Of a stretch of DNA of 64,000 nt, positions 2,286 through 59,859 are shown one piece after another. Position 1 is the first letter of the stretch, and the number at the start of each line of letters is the position of its first letter. Under the pieces are notes generated by a model, which was given only the letters and a program-made list of their open reading frames with translations, was not told the DNA's origin and did no database searches. The DNA lies in UHGV virus genome UHGV-0174779; one strand, 5' to 3'. The position numbers were made by a program, and so were the translations under genes. This DNA is from a virus.

Positions 2286-2316
2286 CTTATGCAATCTCTT
2301 TACTAGTTACTATACA

Positions 2317-3636
2317 TTATACTACTTTTGGAGTAGCAGGAATAGAACAAGTAGCTGTAACTGTAGTTTGAGATTTATGTGTTGCCTTGACTGTAACAGT
2401 TTCAGCACCCGGGTCATCTGCAAGAGTGAGACTACCAGAGCTGTCTACTGTACCAGCAGCAGTTGGAGTTACTACATAATTGAAGTTAGTTGCAGCATTA
2501 TTACTCGTAAACATATCAGCAAAAGGTACTACATCACCACCAACTTTAGCCTCTACAGTTTTAGCTGTGATGGTAGCTTTAGGAACTACACCACTGATTG
2601 TCCCTGTTGCAGTAACTGAGGTCTGGGTTTTATGAGTAGCTTTGATAGTAACATTACCAGTAGCGTTAGCTGCTAAAGTGACAAGACCTGTATTTGCATC
2701 AATAGAGGTTGCCATATTAGAAGGGTTGGCTACGAAAGTGTAATTGGAAGCAGAAGAGTTAGTTGCTGTGAATAAGGCAGCAAATGTAACAGTGTCTCCA
2801 CCAATTTTACCAGTTACTGTCTTAGCGGTCAAATCTGCTTTAGGAGTAACGTTGGACAATGTACAAGTTTCTGTTGCATTGGGTTGTGTTTTGTGAACAG
2901 CTTTAACAACAGTGCTTCCTGATGCATTAGCTGAAAGAACTACAGAACCACCAACGAAAGATCCATTAGCTTCAGGATTCACTGTAACTGTATAATCAGC
3001 TGCTGAGGAGTTGACAGTAGTAAACATGACATTGAAAGATACTGAATCACCACCAACAAGAGCAGTAGTTATTGGACCTTTAGTCACAATTCCAGCTTTA
3101 GCAGCAACTCCAGTAAAGGAAGTAGTAGCTGTAACTGAGGTCTGAGTCTTATGTGTAGCTTTAACTGTCACTGTTCCAGATGCATTGTCATCTAAACCAA
3201 ACACACCCGACAGATTAAAAGAACCTGCTGACGGGGGAGTGATTTCAAATTCATAATCAGAGAATGCTGAGTTAGTTGCCGTAAACATTGTGGTGAATGC
3301 TGTAGTGCTGCCACCAATCTTACCAGTAATAGGACCTTTTGATACAATGGTCGCTGGTTCATAGATAGAATTAACAGTAGCCGTTCCTTTCTTGGATGAC
3401 TTCGTTGCCGTAATAGTTGCTGGGGTTTCTTGCGACGCACTCGGTGCAGTATATAGCCCAGAAACAGAAACAGCCCCACCGCCCTCAACGGACCAACTAA
3501 ATCCGGTTGTGCTTGTGGAGCCGTCACTCATTTCTGCTGTAGCTGTAAACTGCTGAGTAGCCCCCGTCGGAAGACTTGCAACCGACGAAGGACTAACAGT
3601 TACGGAATCTACTGTTACGCCGCCGCTACCTTTCCC
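2317..3636 (-). CDS. Ig-like (BIG2-type) domain region, probably made as a C-terminal extension of the major capsid protein by -1 frameshift
   Basis: Four tandem ~90-aa repeats (VTVKATHKTQTSVTAT..., TKGPITxxxGG). The frame stays open upstream of the first ATG (3531) to 3696, overlapping the capsid gene 3' end in the -1 frame; no Shine-Dalgarno before ATG 3531. Confidence 0.55.
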   Translation of the reverse strand, partial: GKGSGGVTVDSVTVSPSSVASLPTGATQQFTATAEMSDGSTSTTGFSWSVEGGGAVSVSGLYTAPSASQETPATITATKSSKKGTATVNSIYEPATIVSKGPITGKIGGSTTAFTTMFTATNSAFSDYEFEITPPSAGSFNLSGVFGLDDNASGTVTVKATHKTQTSVTATTSFTGVAAKAGIVTKGPITTALVGGDSVSFNVMFTTVNSSAADYTVTVNPEANGSFVGGSVVLSANASGSTVVKAVHKTQPNATETCTLSNVTPKADLTAKTVTGKIGGDTVTFAALFTATNSSASNYTFVANPSNMATSIDANTGLVTLAANATGNVTIKATHKTQTSVTATGTISGVVPKATITAKTVEAKVGGDVVPFADMFTSNNAATNFNYVVTPTAAGTVDSSGSLTLADDPGAETVTVKATHKSQTTVTATCSIPATPKVV

Positions 3637-10427: not shown

Positions 10428-10453
10428 TTTATACTCCTTCTACATTATCAACA

Positions 10454-10480
10454 ACACAAAAAGCCTCCCAACGGAGGCAA
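10454..10480 (-). terminator. Terminator-like hairpin upstream of terminase genes (minus strand)
   Basis: Minus strand GCCTCC-GUUG-GGAGGC followed by UUUUUGUGUU. Confidence 0.4.
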
Positions 10481-11469: not shown

Positions 11470-11576
11470 AATTCATCTCCCTTCTTTATTCCTAATAAGT
11501 CAGCGGCTATGTAACCAAACACAACAACAATAGGAACAGTGACAAAAAGAATTAAACCCAACAGTAACCATCCCAT
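11466..11576 (-). CDS. Small membrane protein (36 aa)
   Basis: MGWLLLGLILFVTVPIVVVFGYIAADLLGIKKGDEL, GAGGA RBS, stop overlaps next start; below ORF-track size cut-off. Confidence 0.3.
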   Translation of the reverse strand: MGWLLLGLILFVTVPIVVVFGYIAADLLGIKKGDEL

Positions 11577-11624
11577 ACTTTTGTCCTCTGAGTAAAAAAA
11601 AATATAAAGGGCACATCATAAGAC

Positions 11625-12413
11625 CTACCCGTAAAGGCCACCTCACATTAACACCCGTGAGTATACCTGTATTCCTTTTCGTAGTCTTCTTCAGAGAAGC
11701 TACCATATTCATCTTCAGTCATACATCCCTCTGATAAAAGTTAAAACATAAAGGGGACGTCATGTTAAGGCACTATCACATTAAGGCCATGTCACGTTAA
11801 GGCTACTTCATGTGCAGTATCCAATCCCGTAATTAAACCCTCCATAGTTATATATAAGAGTTTAAAATCCTGATTTGACCGAGTGGGGCTAGCCGCTTCC
11901 CGCGCGTTTCCTAAAAAGGGGGAGTCCTCATTTAAAAAAGGGTTATTGGCAATGCCTTTACACCTCCTTCCACGTTCCAACCTTTCCCCGTGCCTACTCC
12001 CCGTTATTCTTTCCCCGTGTATACTACCCAATACATTACCTACCCGTTTATTTAGTTCCCCTTTAAAGAGTGGATGAGAGGCTAGTCTTCCACTGTACCA
12101 ATAGATTGAGGCGATATAATGCCCATGAGTAATAGTCACAAGCCCCCATAGTTTGAATGTAAATGATTCTAAATGTAATGATTATGAGTGCAATAATGAT
12201 GTATGTATTAATTAAGTGGATGATTGTATTTCTTTTAATAATTTCTTTTATTCCTTTCTTTTTTCAGCGTTCTGTTGGTCTTTTTCTTTTATGAGTTGAT
12301 GATTATTTAAGTGGTATATTACTACCGCACTATCTAGCTACCTTTCCCCGTGGTCTGTCCTGCGGTTGTATGTCCCCGTCCTATATAGATAGTAGAAATA
12401 GTTTACCCGTGGG
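11625..12413 (+). repeat. Cluster of eight same-strand CCCGT(G) repeats
   Basis: tacccgt/acccgtg/tttccccgtg at about 11627, 11653, 11985, 11999, 12013, 12042, 12345, 12374 and 12405, all on the plus strand in the divergent control region. Confidence 0.5.
11758..11805 (+). repeat. Three tandem 16-bp direct repeats (TCAYRTTAAGGC-N4)
   Basis: tcatGTTAAGGcacta / tcacaTTAAGGccatg / tcacGTTAAGGctact, perfect 16-nt periodicity. Confidence 0.5.
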
Positions 12414-12640: not shown

Positions 12641-12669
12641 TTGACATGTTAGGTAGTAAGAAATATATT
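12641..12669 (+). promoter_or_regulatory. Sigma70-type promoter (TTGACA-N17-TATATT)
   Basis: Consensus -35 at 12641-12646 and -10 at 12664-12669, about 40 nt upstream of gene 12711. Confidence 0.5.
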
Positions 12670-14923: not shown

Positions 14924-14951
14924 TTGACAAGGTAATCTAATAAGTTATAAT
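14924..14951 (+). promoter_or_regulatory. Sigma70 consensus promoter (TTGACA-N16-TATAAT)
   Basis: Perfect -35 and -10 hexamers, preceded by aaaaagag A-tract. Confidence 0.6.
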
Positions 14952-15099: not shown

Positions 15100-15128
15100 T
15101 TGACAGGCGCTGAGAGATAGGTCATAAT
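15100..15128 (+). promoter_or_regulatory. Sigma70-type promoter (TTGACA-N17-CATAAT)
   Basis: Third tandem promoter, preceded by aaaaagatgg. Confidence 0.55.
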
Positions 15129-17062: not shown

Positions 17063-17281
17063 ATGTTAACTACGCATACCACGATCTACAGAAACCTTCG
17101 CAACGGTCAGCATTACCGCCTATCTAAAAAGTATGGCGTTGAATGTAAATGTATACTTACTGGTGAATGGTATCCGTCTCCAATGAAGATTGAGACGTTA
17201 GAACATGAAGCGATTAGTTATACCATCACGCAAGAAACAACGTTAGGCCGTGTGCTACGTAAGTTAGGATTGAGAAAATGA
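17063..17281 (+). CDS. Hypothetical protein
   Basis: ORF 17054..17281, ATG 17063 after AAAGGTGA. Confidence 0.45.
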   Translation: MLTTHTTIYRNLRNGQHYRLSKKYGVECKCILTGEWYPSPMKIETLEHEAISYTITQETTLGRVLRKLGLRK

Positions 17282-18848: not shown

Positions 18849-19046
18849 TCACTGGTGCCAGATTTGACAAACTAAATTCCTTTATAAACCAACCACTTAG
18901 TAAATTTATTGAAAAAGATGGTAGTATTCTGGGACTATGGTAATGCTCTGTATATAGACCCTTTGAAAATTTCTTAGAAAATAAGTTTACTAAATATAAC
19001 TTACTTAAATAATATTACTTTTAATCTCTGATAAAGGGTAAATAAT

Positions 19047-19806: not shown

Positions 19807-19840
19807 AAAAGGCTGCCTTCGGGTGGCCTTTGTTGTTTTA
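19807..19840 (+). terminator. Rho-independent terminator
   Basis: AAAGGCTGCC-TTCG-GGTGGCCTTT followed by GTTGTTTT. Confidence 0.6.
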
Positions 19841-20590: not shown

Positions 20591-20696
20591 CGAGAGCTCT
20601 TAGTGAGGGTGTATCTTCCCCGCCTTCTAAGCGGTCGTTAAAGAAGTAAATGGAGTATGCAGGTTCGAGTCCTGTCACCCTCGCTAAGAGCTCTTG
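20591..20696 (+). other. Long inverted repeat forming a 21-bp stem that encloses a tRNA-like T-arm (candidate RNase III site or structured RNA)
   Basis: cgagagctcttagtgagggtg (20591-20611) pairs with caccctcgctaagagctcttg (20676-20696) with two G-U pairs; enclosed GGTTCGAGTCC matches the tRNA T-loop consensus. Confidence 0.4.
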
Positions 20697-32496: not shown

Positions 32497-32745
32497 ATGG
32501 ATATGTTTTCATTGGAAGATCTAGTACAAAATGGAATGATGGAACAAAAAGAGCCTCTGATTGTAGGCTCTCGTAAAGAGTTGCGTAAGTTGTGTGAGGA
32601 ATGGGGTATTACTAATCAGCGAATGATTGGTAATCAATTCTCTGCAATTGTAACTTTCCTGAAACGTGGTGATAAGTATTCTATGGAATGTGTAGAACGT
32701 ATCATCGCTGAAGCACAACAAGACAAAGGAGTGACCTATCTGTGA
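32497..32745 (+). CDS. Hypothetical protein
   Basis: 82 aa ORF. Confidence 0.4.
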   Translation: MDMFSLEDLVQNGMMEQKEPLIVGSRKELRKLCEEWGITNQRMIGNQFSAIVTFLKRGDKYSMECVERIIAEAQQDKGVTYL

Positions 32746-38945: not shown

Positions 38946-39017
38946 TTGGTAGTAGATATGATAACTCTCAAATGTATATAGAGTACAATAAGAATTTGTA
39001 TTTTACAGGAGAGAGTT

Positions 39018-39347
39018 ATGTTAGATTTGAGTAAAGTGGCCCCGCCCACTGAAGAGATTACAAAATCCAAGGTGATGCAACAGTTTTATCATCGTGATAT
39101 GCTTGGTCGCTTTATCAAGAATCGTGATGTTGTTGCTTGGTCTATCGGTAATCAGGGATATCTGTTGAAGGTTCTTCAGGTTACAGGTTCAACTGCTAAG
39201 CGAGTTAAGGTGTATGACCCTGAAATGGGGCGTTCTAAGTCAGTAGACCCACAGAACTGCATCGTAATTACCCAGCAGGTAATGGATAATATTGCACGTA
39301 ACGTTGCTAACTCAGTTGAACTTGATGGAGAAAACCCAAATGCATAA
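39018..39347 (+). CDS. Hypothetical protein
   Basis: 109 aa ORF, GAGAG RBS; preceded by an AATGTATATAG element. Confidence 0.45.
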   Translation: MLDLSKVAPPTEEITKSKVMQQFYHRDMLGRFIKNRDVVAWSIGNQGYLLKVLQVTGSTAKRVKVYDPEMGRSKSVDPQNCIVITQQVMDNIARNVANSVELDGENPNA

Positions 39348-42476: not shown

Positions 42477-43210
42477 GTCGTCGTCAATCACGGAAAGAAT
42501 CACGGAAAGATCTTCGTCGGGAAGCACTTGTTACTCGTAAGGGTAAGCGAGAGTATGAAGAGGTGGTTTTAGCAAAGCCTGTAGTCCCTCAGAACCAGTT
42601 TCAGTCTGAGCTACTCAATGCTATTAAGACTAAACAAGTTGTGTTCACAGACGCTCCTGCGGGCTGTGGTAAGACCTTTGTAATCACTTCCACGGTTATT
42701 GATGCACTGAAGAGTGGTAAGATTCAGAAGATCATCCTAAGTCGACCTTCAGTTGGCATGGGTAACTCTCTTGGGTTACTTCCTGGAGGGATGCGTGAGA
42801 AGTTTGAACCGTACCTGATGCCTATTATTGATGTTATTACTCAGCGATATGGTAAGGGATTCTATGAATGCCAAATCGGAAATGGTAACATTGAATTTGT
42901 ACCTCTGGAATATCTCCGTGGTCGTTCTTTCAATGATGCTATTGTTATCGTAGACGAGTTCCAGAACACAACTAAGGATGAAGCCTTCTCCATCATGACT
43001 CGATTGGGAGAAACCTCTCAACTGTTCTGCATGGGTGATACAAACCAGCATGATATGCGTGGTCGTGAGAGTGGCCTAACTTGGGCTACTAATTTTATTG
43101 ATGAACACGATCTGTATGAGTATGCTGAGATTGTAGATGGTGAATCGGATGACATTGTTCGTTCTGGTTTCTGTAAGGCGATTGTTAAAGCAATGGAAAA
43201 GAAAGCTTAA
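42473..43210 (+). CDS. phoH: PhoH-like ATPase
   Basis: 245 aa; Walker A APAGCGKTF, ILSRPSVGMGNSLGLLPG, Walker B IVIVDEFQN, MGDTNQHD. Confidence 0.8.
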   Translation: MSRRQSRKESRKDLRREALVTRKGKREYEEVVLAKPVVPQNQFQSELLNAIKTKQVVFTDAPAGCGKTFVITSTVIDALKSGKIQKIILSRPSVGMGNSLGLLPGGMREKFEPYLMPIIDVITQRYGKGFYECQIGNGNIEFVPLEYLRGRSFNDAIVIVDEFQNTTKDEAFSIMTRLGETSQLFCMGDTNQHDMRGRESGLTWATNFIDEHDLYEYAEIVDGESDDIVRSGFCKAIVKAMEKKA

Positions 43211-43266
43211 ATAGTAACTTATAATGTATACTCCTTAGTGTACACTGATATATTAAGGAGTTCTAA

Positions 43267-43584
43267 ATGGCAGACCATGTAGGAAAGAGAGATTATGCAC
43301 AAGAAAGACGTACCGCAATTGCCCGTGGTGAAACAGGCGTTGGGAGCAAGAGCGGAGATGCTCAGCGCCACCGTGCACGTCGCATCGTTGAAAAGCGCGA
43401 TGGAAAAGCTGCTGTCAGAGGTAAAGACGTTGGACACAAACGAGCTGTCAAGTCTGGAGGCTCTAATGCGTCAAGCAACTTACGTGTTGAATCAGTCAGC
43501 TCAAACCGTTCAAACGGCGGCAAAAGTGGTGATCGAGCTGGAAAAGCAGCTGGATCTCGCAAAGGAGCTTTAAGCTCATCATAA
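43267..43584 (+). CDS. Hypothetical basic protein
   Basis: 105 aa with AAGGAG RBS 7 nt upstream; a 92-aa ORF in another frame (43295-43573) overlaps it completely. Confidence 0.4.
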   Translation: MADHVGKRDYAQERRTAIARGETGVGSKSGDAQRHRARRIVEKRDGKAAVRGKDVGHKRAVKSGGSNASSNLRVESVSSNRSNGGKSGDRAGKAAGSRKGALSSS

Positions 43585-47339: not shown

Positions 47340-47745
47340 TAAGTAATGGGTGTTTATGAGAAGTTTCTTGTTTTTGTATCAATTTGTTTAGTGTTAGATG
47401 TAATAATTATCTATTCTTTTAAATAGAGAATCAAAGTCCCTAGGAGTCCCTACAACCTAAATCAAGGATTCCTTAATTCTCTATTTTTATCACGCAGGTG
47501 GCTCCTGCCCTTCCGGTAGTCTCTCAATTTCTTACAAACTTATGAGAGATTGTCGTCTGCGCCTTATCGTCGTCAGTCCCGTGCAATAACTTTATCAGCT
47601 ATACAATATATACATTACTGGTATGTTATATCTACTACCAAAGATACTTATACTATATAGTACTCTTATCGGTATAAGCGTAATGTATACTATACATAAC
47701 CGCTCAAAGAGAGCAACAATCTTTCAAACTAAATAAGGAAATTTA
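47340..47745 (+). repeat. AT-rich structured non-coding region with inverted and TATAC-type repeats (candidate origin or middle promoter region)
   Basis: aatagagaat ... attctctatt inverted repeat enclosing gtccctaggagtccct, then tatacaatatatac / tatactatatag / taatgtatactatac repeats, immediately upstream of the SSB gene. Confidence 0.35.
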
Positions 47746-47748
47746 ATA

Positions 47749-48495
47749 ATGAGCATGATTCCAACTATCGCAACTTCTTCCCGTAAATCCAACTACGATG
47801 TAATCCCTGATGGTGAATACGAAGCACGTATTGTTCGTGTAGTAGGTTTGGGTGTTCACAATCGTGACCCTTGGATTGACCCGAAGACCAAAGCAGTAAC
47901 TCCTAAGAATCCAGCATTCCGTATGGATTTAGCTTTCGAGCTGATTGGCGTTGATGCTACTGGTAAAGATTCCGATGGTAAGGCATTAGAACCACGTCCG
48001 GCTTGCCAGTTCAAGAGCTATGATGTAAACCCACGAGCTAAGAACTCTGGTATTCTTGATCTTTGCAAGATGATTGACCCAAGCATTCAAGCACTGAAAG
48101 GTGATCTATCTTGGTTCAAGGATGTTCTGTTAGGTCAGCCTGTTAACATTCTGGTTAACTCTTACACTAATAAAGCTGGTGAAGTTAAAAACTCCATCAA
48201 GACCATTTCTCCAATCCCAACCAAATACCGTGCAGCAGTTGGTGAAGCTCGTAGTCCTCTGGTATTCTTCGAACCATATGCTGAAACCGATGAGAACGTA
48301 GCATCCTATCAACTGATGTTCCCGTTCCAGCGCAACCTGCTTACTCAAGCTAATGACGCTAAGAACATGCCTCTGGCTGGTCGTGAAATTACTCGTGCTT
48401 CTGAAACAGAACAGAAAGAAGCTACTCCTTCAATCCCTACGATTGATAAAGAGCCTGCTTCTACTTATGAAGATGATAACGATTCGCCTTTCTGA
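47749..48495 (+). CDS. Single-stranded DNA-binding protein (putative)
   Basis: 248 aa; acidic C-terminal tail ending ...STYEDDNDSPF (SSB-like D-D-x-P-F terminus); position in replication module. Confidence 0.6.
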   Translation: MSMIPTIATSSRKSNYDVIPDGEYEARIVRVVGLGVHNRDPWIDPKTKAVTPKNPAFRMDLAFELIGVDATGKDSDGKALEPRPACQFKSYDVNPRAKNSGILDLCKMIDPSIQALKGDLSWFKDVLLGQPVNILVNSYTNKAGEVKNSIKTISPIPTKYRAAVGEARSPLVFFEPYAETDENVASYQLMFPFQRNLLTQANDAKNMPLAGREITRASETEQKEATPSIPTIDKEPASTYEDDNDSPF

Positions 48496-48787: not shown

Positions 48788-49958
<1,171 letters not shown>

Positions 49959-56095: not shown

Positions 56096-56162
56096 AACGT
56101 CTCCTTTTATAAATAAAAATGTCCTACCCCCTATATACATTATAGAAGGCAGGACTTAGGTC

Positions 56163-57812
56163 TTATTGCGTGAACCAGCTAGTGTCTTCGACAGCTGATA
56201 AAGCACCATTAAGCTTAGGGTTGGTTGCTGCACCCCCAACAGATTCTTCCGCTTGCTCAGAGAAAACACCTAGAGGGTCATAGAAACCACCAGAAGGAAT
56301 TGCACGGTTAACCAATGCAGTAGCTCTCTTCTTATCCATACCAGAACCGATGTAAGCTTCAATTGTCGCTTTCTTAGCATCAGCAACACCTTTCATTGCA
56401 GAGGTGTGACCAACGTTAGCTTGCTTACGAGCATAAGAAAGAGCAGCATCAGTAGGACGCCATCCAGACTTCAGTGCAAACTTGTTGCCAACACGAATGA
56501 AGATTGATGGGTCTTCTGCAAAGTGCCCCAAGTCTTCTTCGGTAAGAGAACGAGTAGCACCAATTTCAGCCCTTGCGGAGTTCATGATAGCCTGCATGTA
56601 AGCAGAACGAGCTGTCTGATAGTCTTTATCCTTAACAGCCTTGTCAGCCAAATCCAAGTCTTTGTTGGACTGGTTAAACAGACCACCTTTCTCTGCCCAC
56701 TGCTTAGCAACTGTACCCTCAGCTGTGTTCTGAGCAAGACGAACTTCTTTCGGGTTAAAGTTAAAACTCTGAGCAGCTTGTTCAGCACGTTCAGCCTTAA
56801 CCTTATCACGGAAGCCAATCAACTCTTTCTGACGTTCAAAGTTCATGTTAGCTCTTTCTTCAGCGGCACGACGAGTCTCATCAGCACGCTCACGCATAGT
56901 CTGCTCTTGAATCTGTTGACGTCTATCCCATTCAGCATTCTGACGTTCTTCACGAGCAGCATACAATGCTTCTTTCTGAGCAGGGTCTACAGCTTTCATC
57001 TTCAGCAGTGATGGGTCTCCGTTAGCAATAGCAGCTGCGATTGAGTCTTGAGAGAAGCCTTGTTCAATCAAAGCATCACGGTTAGCTTCCAGTTGCTTCT
57101 TAGTCTCGTCTTGGTTAGCCATACCTTGACCAATCTGGAAAGCTTCGATAGGAGACTTACCTGACATGATTGAAAGACCAACACCCATCAAACCTGTATA
57201 GAAACTAGAGTTCTGATAGAATGGCTCTTTCTGTAGCTTGTTCCAAGCTTCTGAAGGGTCTTTAGCTTTCGCAACTTGCAAGATATCATTGTTAACACGC
57301 TCTTGATCTTTAGCACGAGTAGCAGCAGCCATTCCATCACCAGTGTCTTGTCCTTGAGCAAGAGTGTTAATCACACCTTGTGCCTGTTCCACCTGAGAAG
57401 GAGTAAACTCCATAGGACCAGCTTCTAGCGGTTTAGTAGGAGGCGTTACCGGAAGAGGTTCTGATTCTTGAGGAATAGAAGAAGGAGAAAGTCCAGCAGC
57501 TTGCATGGTTTCTTGGTTCTCAAACTCAGGAAGAGTTACAGCCTGTTGTGCTTGAGGTTGTACATCATTCGGAATATCAGAAGGAAGCCCGTTACTCTGA
57601 ACAGGATTCAACATATTCTGATAGTCGACTGAAGTCTGACCTACAAGAGAAGAAAGTCCAGCAGGTATAGCAGGTCGTTGATACATAGAAATATCTGCTG
57701 TCTGAGTAGGTCTCGCCATATAAGGAGAGGCCGAAGCCGCTCCCGGATTAACACCATAGAAAGTATTTCTCGGGTCACGACTTCTGACCTGAGCGTAAGT
57801 TGTCTGTTGCAT
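56163..57812 (-). CDS. Virion protein (putative internal or tail protein)
   Basis: 549 aa ORF in structural block; P/Q-rich N-terminus, helical C-terminal half. Confidence 0.5.
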   Translation of the reverse strand: MQQTTYAQVRSRDPRNTFYGVNPGAASASPYMARPTQTADISMYQRPAIPAGLSSLVGQTSVDYQNMLNPVQSNGLPSDIPNDVQPQAQQAVTLPEFENQETMQAAGLSPSSIPQESEPLPVTPPTKPLEAGPMEFTPSQVEQAQGVINTLAQGQDTGDGMAAATRAKDQERVNNDILQVAKAKDPSEAWNKLQKEPFYQNSSFYTGLMGVGLSIMSGKSPIEAFQIGQGMANQDETKKQLEANRDALIEQGFSQDSIAAAIANGDPSLLKMKAVDPAQKEALYAAREERQNAEWDRRQQIQEQTMRERADETRRAAEERANMNFERQKELIGFRDKVKAERAEQAAQSFNFNPKEVRLAQNTAEGTVAKQWAEKGGLFNQSNKDLDLADKAVKDKDYQTARSAYMQAIMNSARAEIGATRSLTEEDLGHFAEDPSIFIRVGNKFALKSGWRPTDAALSYARKQANVGHTSAMKGVADAKKATIEAYIGSGMDKKRATALVNRAIPSGGFYDPLGVFSEQAEESVGGAATNPKLNGALSAVEDTSWFTQ

Positions 57813-58806: not shown

Positions 58807-59859
58807 TTAGTTTGCTCCGAATGCCCCTAAGACACCACCTAAGATATTACTACCTGCTGTGGATAACCAGTTAGACTGACCTCTCTGTTGAGAAAGATTA
58901 GAACCTCCAATCATAGGACCAGCCATTCCAGATTGCCCACCTGAGTTGTTATAGGAACTCCAAGCATTCTGAGTCTGTTGATTAGGAGAGAAAGCACCCA
59001 TACGCCCTGCAATACCTAATCCAGTGATACCAGCACCTAGGAGCTGTTGTCCAGTGTTAACCCCCGGAGCAGCATTCTTAATCGTGTACCCAGCCATTGG
59101 GCTTACACTGTTTAATACATTAAGCTGGTTGTTAAGCTGATTCCACCCATACTGCTGAGAACCAATAGCGTTCTGCCAATTAATATCAGCTTGAGCTTGG
59201 GCTTGTTGCTGTTGTAGATTACCAGCCATGAGTTGATTCTGAATAGCCTGTTGAGTTGCCTGAACACCTTGGGCACCAAGATTGAGGTTCTGTCCAGCTA
59301 AACCAGACTGAGCACCAAGCAAACCTCTCTGGAAGTTCTGATCTTGTTGAAGAGCACTTACACCCATGTTCTTGCCACTGATAGTACGAGACAGGTTAGT
59401 GTTAGCACCATTCAAAGCAGCCCCTTGAGCCGCAGCCCTACGGAGGGAGCCGGAGTCAGAGCCATTGCCAAGAGAGACATTAGAAGCTGCTTTGCTAGTA
59501 GCTTGTGCAAGAGCCGAATTATTCAAACCTTTACTAAAGTTATTAACCCCTTCAGCCGTTACTCCACCACCATTAACAATATTCTGATACTGTTGAGCAA
59601 GAGCGTTTAATTGGTCCAACCCTTGCTGTGTACGAGGTGTGTACATATCAGCCAATTGCTTCTGAGTAGTAGAAGCTGCTAAGTTGTTCAGAGCACCCTG
59701 TTGGTTGCCATTAAACCCAGCCAGCTGTTGGGAGATGAATCCCGGATCGTTGTTCTGCATATTCTGAGCATTAGCAACAATCTGCTTCAGCAGGGCATCA
59801 ACCTGAGAGGAAGGGGCTACTGTGGTTTTGCTAGAAGCTGATTTTCCAAATAAAGACAT
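58807..59859 (-). CDS. Gln/Asn/Gly-rich virion protein (paralog of 57826-58794)
   Basis: 350 aa; N-terminus MSLFGKSASSKTT, C-terminal ILGGVLGAFGAN. Confidence 0.5.
   Translation of the reverse strand: MSLFGKSASSKTTVAPSSQVDALLKQIVANAQNMQNNDPGFISQQLAGFNGNQQGALNNLAASTTQKQLADMYTPRTQQGLDQLNALAQQYQNIVNGGGVTAEGVNNFSKGLNNSALAQATSKAASNVSLGNGSDSGSLRRAAAQGAALNGANTNLSRTISGKNMGVSALQQDQNFQRGLLGAQSGLAGQNLNLGAQGVQATQQAIQNQLMAGNLQQQQAQAQADINWQNAIGSQQYGWNQLNNQLNVLNSVSPMAGYTIKNAAPGVNTGQQLLGAGITGLGIAGRMGAFSPNQQTQNAWSSYNNSGGQSGMAGPMIGGSNLSQQRGQSNWLSTAGSNILGGVLGAFGAN

Follow-up and report, generated by a model that had tools for sequence, protein, structure and literature searches.

The closest described system is that of phage phiEco32, in which the sigma70 holoenzyme reads the early genes and the core polymerase carrying gp36 reads the middle and late genes, according to three reports (PMC8948821, PMC4331800, PMC4281155). 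These reports give a gp36 promoter consensus of tAATGTAtA, with the start site located 6–8 nt downstream (PMC8948821, PMC4331800, PMC4281155). Six gp36 promoters are placed there upstream of genes 6, 13, 26, 40, 58 and 68, and sigma70 promoters upstream of early genes (PMC8948821). The published supplement lists the cores as TAATGTAgA for P6, TAATGTATA for P13, P26, P40 and P58, and aAATGTATA for P68, together with counterparts in five relatives. A cryo-EM structure of the open complex on P68, published in 2025, located AATGTA at positions -14 to -9, centred at -11.5, with gp36 reading -14A, -13A, -12T and -11G (PMC12276001). On this middle promoter the C-terminal domain of gp36 touches -37G and -34A, and the phage protein gp79, an inhibitor of the sigma70 holoenzyme and an activator of the gp36 holoenzyme, displaces region 4 of sigma70 and stabilises the gp36 open complex (PMC12276001). 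Promoter mutations abolished transcription in the purified system, and P26 of phiEco32 was used in the 2025 transcription assays (PMC12276001). The authors of the SU10 paper proposed that sigma70 may also use some of the middle promoters (PMC4281155). Correct initiation by the purified core with gp36, without any other phage protein, has been reported for phiEco32.

Late promoters of T4 offer a more distant comparison. They carry TATAAATA at -10, which is read by gp55 together with gp33, and they require the sliding clamp as an activator. The two systems are alike in having a short dominant element in the -10 region, no canonical -35 hexamer, and a divergent phage sigma factor with a small co-activator. 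The sequences and the proteins are unrelated, however, and gp36 retains a sigma4-like domain that touches the -35 region. Salmonella phage 7-11, a related podovirus with an elongated head, shares with the phiEco32 type a phage-encoded sigma factor acting on the host core and similar genome positions (PMC8948821). In contrast to the phiEco32-type consensus, its gp47-dependent late promoters (GTAAtg-N16-aCTA) are clearly bipartite; its sigma factor is only about 15% identical, and it has neither a gp79 homologue nor a middle class (PMC8948821).

The DNA analysed here is a stretch of 64,000 nucleotides (UHGV virus genome UHGV-0174779), referred to below as the window. It is a phiEco32-like coliphage (Gordonclarkvirinae, Kuravirus group). 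Its likeness to phiEco32 extends to the core consensus, the cores of the individual promoters, their positions relative to orthologous genes, the sigma factor (98% identity) and gp79, and in the P68 region it is base-for-base. The window is nonetheless a separate isolate, with an overall identity to phiEco32 of ∼92% and matching gene order. Between 36 and 50 kb it shows 90–93% identity to a large group of Escherichia podophages including ES17, EcoN5, LAMP and Bas91-94. We had considered these relatives as N4-like phages, and this was ruled out by the annotation of Bas91 and phiEco32, which holds the phiEco32-type set of an amidoligase/glutamine-amidotransferase cluster, primase-helicase, DNA polymerase, PhoH, ThyX and an 'RNA polymerase sigma factor'. 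Neither an N4-type virion RNA polymerase nor the gp15/gp16 RNAPII was found in the annotation of the close relatives and phiEco32, which argues against middle promoters of the N4 RNAPII type.

Late genes occupy the minus strand from 1 to 11.7 kb and again from 51.8 to 64 kb, and early and middle genes lie on the plus strand from 12 to 51.6 kb. A genome-end repeat is located at about 12.0–12.1 kb: the segment 11980–12100 matches both ends (the terminal repeat) of the linear phiEco32 genome, and the window therefore spans the genome-end junction, as a circularly joined assembly would. Strong sigma70-type promoters were observed on the plus strand at 12641–12669 (TTGACA-17-TATATT), 14924–14951 (TTGACA-16-TATAAT) and 15100–15128 (TTGACA-17-CATAAT); the cluster includes a stretch, at about 14.7–16.0 kb, without a long plus-strand open reading frame. 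These are probably the early promoters. A tRNA was called by Rfam at 20605–20683 (plus strand) with 30.2 bits, barely more than the gathering score of 29, and ARAGORN detected no tRNA anywhere in the window; a tRNA-Arg is present in the early regions of phiEco32 and Bas91.

The repeated element considered in this work has the core AATGTATA. The initial annotation had described it as ATGTATAY, and in that form the enrichment was weak, with 9 copies found and 4.3 expected, a number reached in 3 of 100 shuffled sequences. When the frame was moved one base further upstream, to AATGTATA, 8 copies were found against 2.6 expected, and none of 100 shuffles reached 8. Six of the eight copies are intergenic, in a window of which 10.8% is intergenic (P = 4e-5), and five are followed, 20–80 nt further on, by a co-oriented start codon (P = 1e-5), both values being based on a simple map of open reading frames. 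An intergenic motif search, as called for in the initial annotation, in which all 8-mers of the gene-sense intergenic DNA were screened de novo, ranked AATGTATA at the top, with 5 occurrences observed versus 0.09 expected (P = 5e-8, or ∼0.003 when corrected for 65,536 words). Matches to TAATGTATA with a single mismatch occurred at chance level. Three of the five sites originally listed belong to the class and two do not. The 'related copy' at about 18945 reads TAATGCTCTGTATATAG / GGTAATGCTCTGTATATAG and lacks the AATGTA core, as does the one on the minus strand at 11714–11731, which reads GGATGTATGA and whose ATG is the start codon of the open reading frame 11500–11712.

The element had been proposed to be a phage-specific promoter read by the sigma-like protein of the phage, and this proposal agrees with the published gp36 promoters of phiEco32, with the presence of a 98%-identical gp36 and with positional orthology. 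The repeated AATGTATA element is the already characterised gp36 promoter class of phiEco32-type coliphages, the sequences being identical, and the finding is therefore a rediscovery of a known system. The gain in biological knowledge is small, since motif, sigma factor, co-activator and promoter-bound structure have all been published. Its value is that of a correct annotation: the phage can be typed as phiEco32-like and its genes can be assigned to sigma70-early or gp36-middle/late units whose starts are predicted. It also means that a true promoter class was recovered by a reader that used no tools.

All six known promoters are present in the window: P68, P58 and P40 precede middle genes on the plus strand, and the minus strand carries P26, P13 and P6 ahead of late structural genes. 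In an alignment of 12 sequences, the six promoters of the window and the six of phiEco32, each window site paired with its phiEco32 counterpart with an identical core, and each was co-oriented and upstream of the orthologue of gene 6, 13, 26, 40, 58 or 68. AATGTA occurs in all six; five sites read (T/A)AATGTATA and P6 reads TAATGTAGA, as in the published table. By orthology, the six promoters would be expected to be active in this phage. The start sites given below are predictions, with +1 placed 14 nt beyond the first A of AATGTA.

The three main sites of the initial annotation correspond to P68, P58 and P40. All three were confirmed on the plus strand, at most 1 nt from where they had been placed, and the distances of 33, 32 and 53 nt between the end of the element and the ATG (at 39018, 43267 and 47749, respectively) were correct. 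The genes that start there are homologues of gp68, gp58 and gp40, as judged from size, order and alignment. The P68 orthologue (38946–38985) consists of the block TTGGTAGTAGATAT at 38946–38959, which contains the -37 G and the -34 A, the core aAATGTATA at 38970–38978 and a predicted +1 A at 38985, and it precedes the gp68 homologue (39018–39347). Between the upstream stop codon and the ATG, this intergenic region is 100% identical to that of phiEco32, despite a different upstream gene. Setting AATGTA at -14 to -9 brings a G to -37 and an A to -34, as in the cryo-EM paper, which confirms the register. The P58 orthologue (43199–43237), with the core TAATGTATA at 43222–43230, AAGAA at -38 to -34 and a predicted +1 A at 43237, lies ahead of the gp58 homologue (43267–43584). 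From -16 to the ATG it is the same as in phiEco32, and the DNA further upstream differs. Upstream of both P58 and P68 the DNA is unlike that of phiEco32 because the neighbouring genes differ. The P40 orthologue (47658–47696) has the core TAATGTATA at 47681–47689, TAGTA at -38 to -34 and a predicted +1 A at 47696; it is nearly identical to phiEco32 throughout, with a core that is invariant in eight genomes. Its target, the gp40 homologue (47749–48495, plus strand), had been labelled as an SSB gene, a label that found no backing, since the product had no Pfam match and matched only PHROGs of unknown function. The acidic C-terminal tail of this protein, ...YEDDNDSPF, recalls SSB tails.

The cores of the three late promoters, at 56134–56142, 2221–2229 and 10439–10447 on the minus strand, are true copies of the element that were absent from the first list. 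The P26 orthologue (56127–56165), which has the core TAATGTATA at 56142–56134 and TAAGA at -38 to -34, is identical in its region to phiEco32 P26. It would drive a large virion gene whose true start is the ATG at 56096–56094, behind AAGGAG; the ATG chosen by the ORF finder, at 56140, falls within the motif. The P13 orthologue (2214–2252; core TAATGTATA at 2229–2221, TAAGA at -38 to -34) follows directly after a terminator hairpin at about 2282–2250. Downstream of it come first an open reading frame for an HNH endonuclease (2187–1654, minus strand) and then the adaptor gene. The HNH frame (Pfam HNH_3, E = 6e-13) overlaps the start of the adaptor gene (933–1781, SU10_adaptor) by ∼128 nt; phiEco32 has no gene at this position, and the frame is probably a homing-endonuclease insertion. 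The P6 orthologue (10432–10470) also lies after a terminator hairpin and has TGGGA at -38 to -34 and the core TAATGTAgA at 10447–10439. The core agrees with the supplement entry for P6, as that of P68 does with its own. The predicted P6 start is odd: it leaves the target gene (10427–9954, minus strand) a leader of only about 5 nt and places the Shine-Dalgarno sequence ahead of +1. The identical sequence is nevertheless listed among the experimental promoters of phiEco32.

Anchored on AATGTA, the six promoters of the window are invariant from -14 to -9 and at -7, and carry T in five of six cases at -15 and at -8. Further upstream, and with the six sites being few, -34 is always A, -37 and -36 are always purines, and -38 is T in five, so that -38 to -34 fits T/A-R-R-N-A throughout. 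At -37 the base is G in two promoters (P68 and P6) and A in the remaining four, and the G/A contacts at -37/-34 were shown experimentally for one promoter only. At P58 the purine-purine-N-A pattern is kept at -37 to -34 (AGAA in the window, AGCA in phiEco32), and phiEco32 reads TAGCA at -38 to -34 despite its different upstream DNA. The A at -34 is likewise retained in P40 of SU7 and rybdy8. The initial annotation had noted the lack of a -35 element. This holds for TTGACA and does not hold for upstream recognition in general, given the gp36 contacts at -37 and -34 and the A at -34 in all six sites. The -34 A and the -37/-36 purines fit the 2025 structure and not the older 'single element' description, and their presence across six promoters is a modest addition from this comparison.

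Both cognate factors are encoded in the window. The gene for the phage sigma factor, a gp36 homologue of 214 aa, lies at 49048–49692 on the plus strand and matches PDB 9M7Y chain F (E = 3e-142, 98% identity), with five residue differences over 212 aligned positions; its match to Pfam Sigma70_r2 is weak. The residues reported to contact the promoter are all conserved (E79, H80, Y83, R84, W90, S91, S94, N95, Y186 and R187), and so are those reported for the clamp helices (D44, E47, E49, D50 and E54). The gp79 homologue (82 aa, 32497–32745, plus strand) is identical to PDB 9M7Y chain G in 81 of 82 residues. The mechanism that we propose is taken over from the phiEco32 experiments. Host sigma70 polymerase would read the early genes from the TTGACA/TATAAT promoters near 12.6–15.1 kb, after which gp36 would replace sigma70 on the host core polymerase. 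The N-terminal domain of gp36 would read AATGTA at -14 to -9, with -14A, -13A and -12T recognised as duplex and -11G as the first flipped base, and its C-terminal domain would contact a loose upstream element around -37 to -34. The role of gp79 would be to displace sigma70 and to stabilise the gp36 open complex.

We are highly confident that the AATGTATA elements serve for recognition in the -10 region of phiEco32-like middle and late promoters. An alternative is that they are extended -10 promoters of host sigma70 (TG followed by TATACT or TATATA), which need no -35 element and would be served by host polymerase alone. The sequences TGTATACT and TGTATATA do resemble TG-n-TATAAT, and the suggestion of the SU10 authors that both holoenzymes may read middle genes (PMC4281155) is in line with this reading. 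However, in TGTATAC/TGTATAT no base separates the TG from the TATA-like hexamer, where an extended -10 element would have a one-base spacer, and the conserved bases reach upstream (AA), the AATG that precedes any TATA-like hexamer being the very bases contacted by gp36 (PMC12276001). A scan with the sigma70 consensus detected no site at P68 or P58 and none coincident with P40, and clear sigma70 promoters were found in the early region of the window only. In phiEco32 the counterparts are assigned to gp36, with sigma70 promoters upstream of early genes (PMC8948821), and gp79 shuts off the sigma70 holoenzyme (PMC12276001). Taken with these observations, the use of the elements by host polymerase alone is very improbable.

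Even smaller is the probability that the element is a site for some other DNA-binding regulator of the phage, for example one that represses or activates middle genes, and not a sigma recognition element. Such a regulator could account for TTGGTAGTAGATAT, which is common to P68 and a minus-strand copy beside P40 (described below) and is conserved far past the two bases contacted by gp36, but the cryo-EM structure shows gp36 reading AATG directly, and the promoter mutations that abolish transcription did so in a purified system (PMC12276001). Recurrence as a functionless by-product, either of the AT-rich composition between genes or of a common descent of duplicated intergenic DNA, would agree with the marginal enrichment of ATGTATAY and with the chance-level frequency of single-mismatch matches to TAATGTATA. 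Against it stand the enrichment of the exact 8-mer, its position upstream of co-oriented genes and its rank as the top intergenic 8-mer, and the flanks of the six sites are mutually unrelated, yet the cores are invariant across the compared genomes. We regard this explanation as close to negligible and retain recognition by gp36.

Several other copies were examined and not counted. The AATGTAT copies at 17148 (plus strand) and 12037 (minus strand) are not conserved, and phiEco32 reads AATGTGTT and TAATGAATA there. A perfect TAATGTATA at 2311–2319 (minus strand, listed at 2318) lacks the upstream features, among them the A at -34, and only phages that share this variant of an Ig-like gene possess it; it overlaps the stop codon of this gene (2317–3531), before the terminator hairpin and at 90 nt upstream of P13. 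The copies at 59121 and 61913 (both minus strand) lie within late genes, read AATGTATT and AATGTATC, and were not taken as promoters. At 18917–18945 (plus strand) the sequence GGTAGTA-N15-AATGCT followed by TGTATATAG is a degenerate likeness of P68. The region around 18945 is 98% identical to the spacer between genes 117 and 116 of phiEco32, where the spacing is N16. It was not counted as a gp36 promoter, the core being wrong and the site not being in the published set; a gp36 site that has decayed or is weak could explain it. The sequences CGGGTGGC and TCGGGTGG repeat in three intergenic segments (for example at 2262–2279 on the minus strand and 19808–19831 on the plus strand), where they belong to terminator stems of the form GCC(G/T)CCTTCGGGTGGC, which suggests a common hairpin design.

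One further copy on the minus strand, at 47616, lies back to back with P40 at a distance of 66 bp. This candidate seventh promoter of the gp36 type (47641–47602, leftward) consists of TTGGTAGTAGATAT at 47641–47628 and the core TAATGTATA at 47617–47609, with a predicted +1 at about 47602. Here TTGGTAGTAGATAT spans -39 to -26, the same 14 nt and the same spacing as in P68. The pattern can be written as TTGGTAGTAGATAT-N11-AATGTATATA, or as a block of the P68 type, a 12-nt spacer and TAATGTATA. Eight genomes were aligned over the region, namely phiEco32 (Kuravirus), SU7 and EK010 (Suseptimavirus), KBNP1711 (Nieuwekanaalvirus), Bas88, Bas93, rybdy8 and the window, representing at least three named genera. 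The blocks TGGTAGTAGATA and GTAATGTATATA were invariant in all eight, and the 10 nt between them varied freely at constant length, as is expected for a promoter with two parts. When IMG/VR was scanned with TGGTAGTAGATA-N12-AATGTA, exactly two matches were obtained per complete phiEco32-like genome, P68 and the leftward copy; a scan in which the gap was allowed to vary gave more than 120 matches, mostly due to chance, and was uninformative. A composite filter built on the features of the six known sites (an A at both -7 and -34, purines at -37/-36) passed 7 of the 48 AATGTA sites in the window, the six known promoters and the leftward copy, although alone it is a weak test because about one extra pass is expected by chance. 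The leftward copy is not among the six gp36 promoters given in the later reports consulted (PMC8948821, PMC4331800) and in the supplement, which restate the primary results on phiEco32, and a literature search on antisense transcription in phiEco32 returned nothing relevant.

On the minus strand, this copy is followed by a conserved structured non-coding region (47601–47408) composed of a 5' hairpin, a middle hairpin that varies and a block that is nearly invariant. No conserved open reading frame was found downstream of the copy on this strand, and Rfam gave no match in the 47.3–47.8 kb region. The 5' hairpin, at +2 to +18, keeps its pairing through compensatory changes across five sequence variants (AUAGCU/AGUUAU, AUAGCU/AGCUAU, AUAGUU/AACUAU, AUAGA/UCUAU and AGAGUU/AACUCU), and the middle hairpin differs in sequence between lineages. 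The nearly invariant block of ∼100 nt contains a 16-bp stem with two G-U pairs on the minus strand, which would be A-C mismatches on the plus strand. Read on the plus strand, the stem is followed by TTTTTAT and looks like a terminator, and it could serve the termination of the upstream operon. Folding energies were significant on both strands (z = -2.9 and -3.3) and therefore do not discriminate between them.

From conservation and layout, the segment 47641–47602 may be a functional seventh gp36 promoter, firing away from gene 40 into the intergenic region between genes 41 and 40 and giving either a conserved structured non-coding RNA of ∼170–195 nt or a transcript that activates or primes a replication origin. 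We hold this reading tentatively, as possible rather than probable. The conserved divergent copy beside P40 could be a sign that the phage sigma factor controls a non-coding RNA of the phage or an origin element, and it is the sole part of this analysis that might repay experiment. Inside the invariant block, at 47440–47465 on the minus strand, we also observed a direct repeat, AGGGACU-CCU-AGGGACU, which reads AGGACU-CCU-AGGACU in Bas88 and EK010. The joint loss of a G in both copies suggests a repeated protein-binding site or a concerted change.
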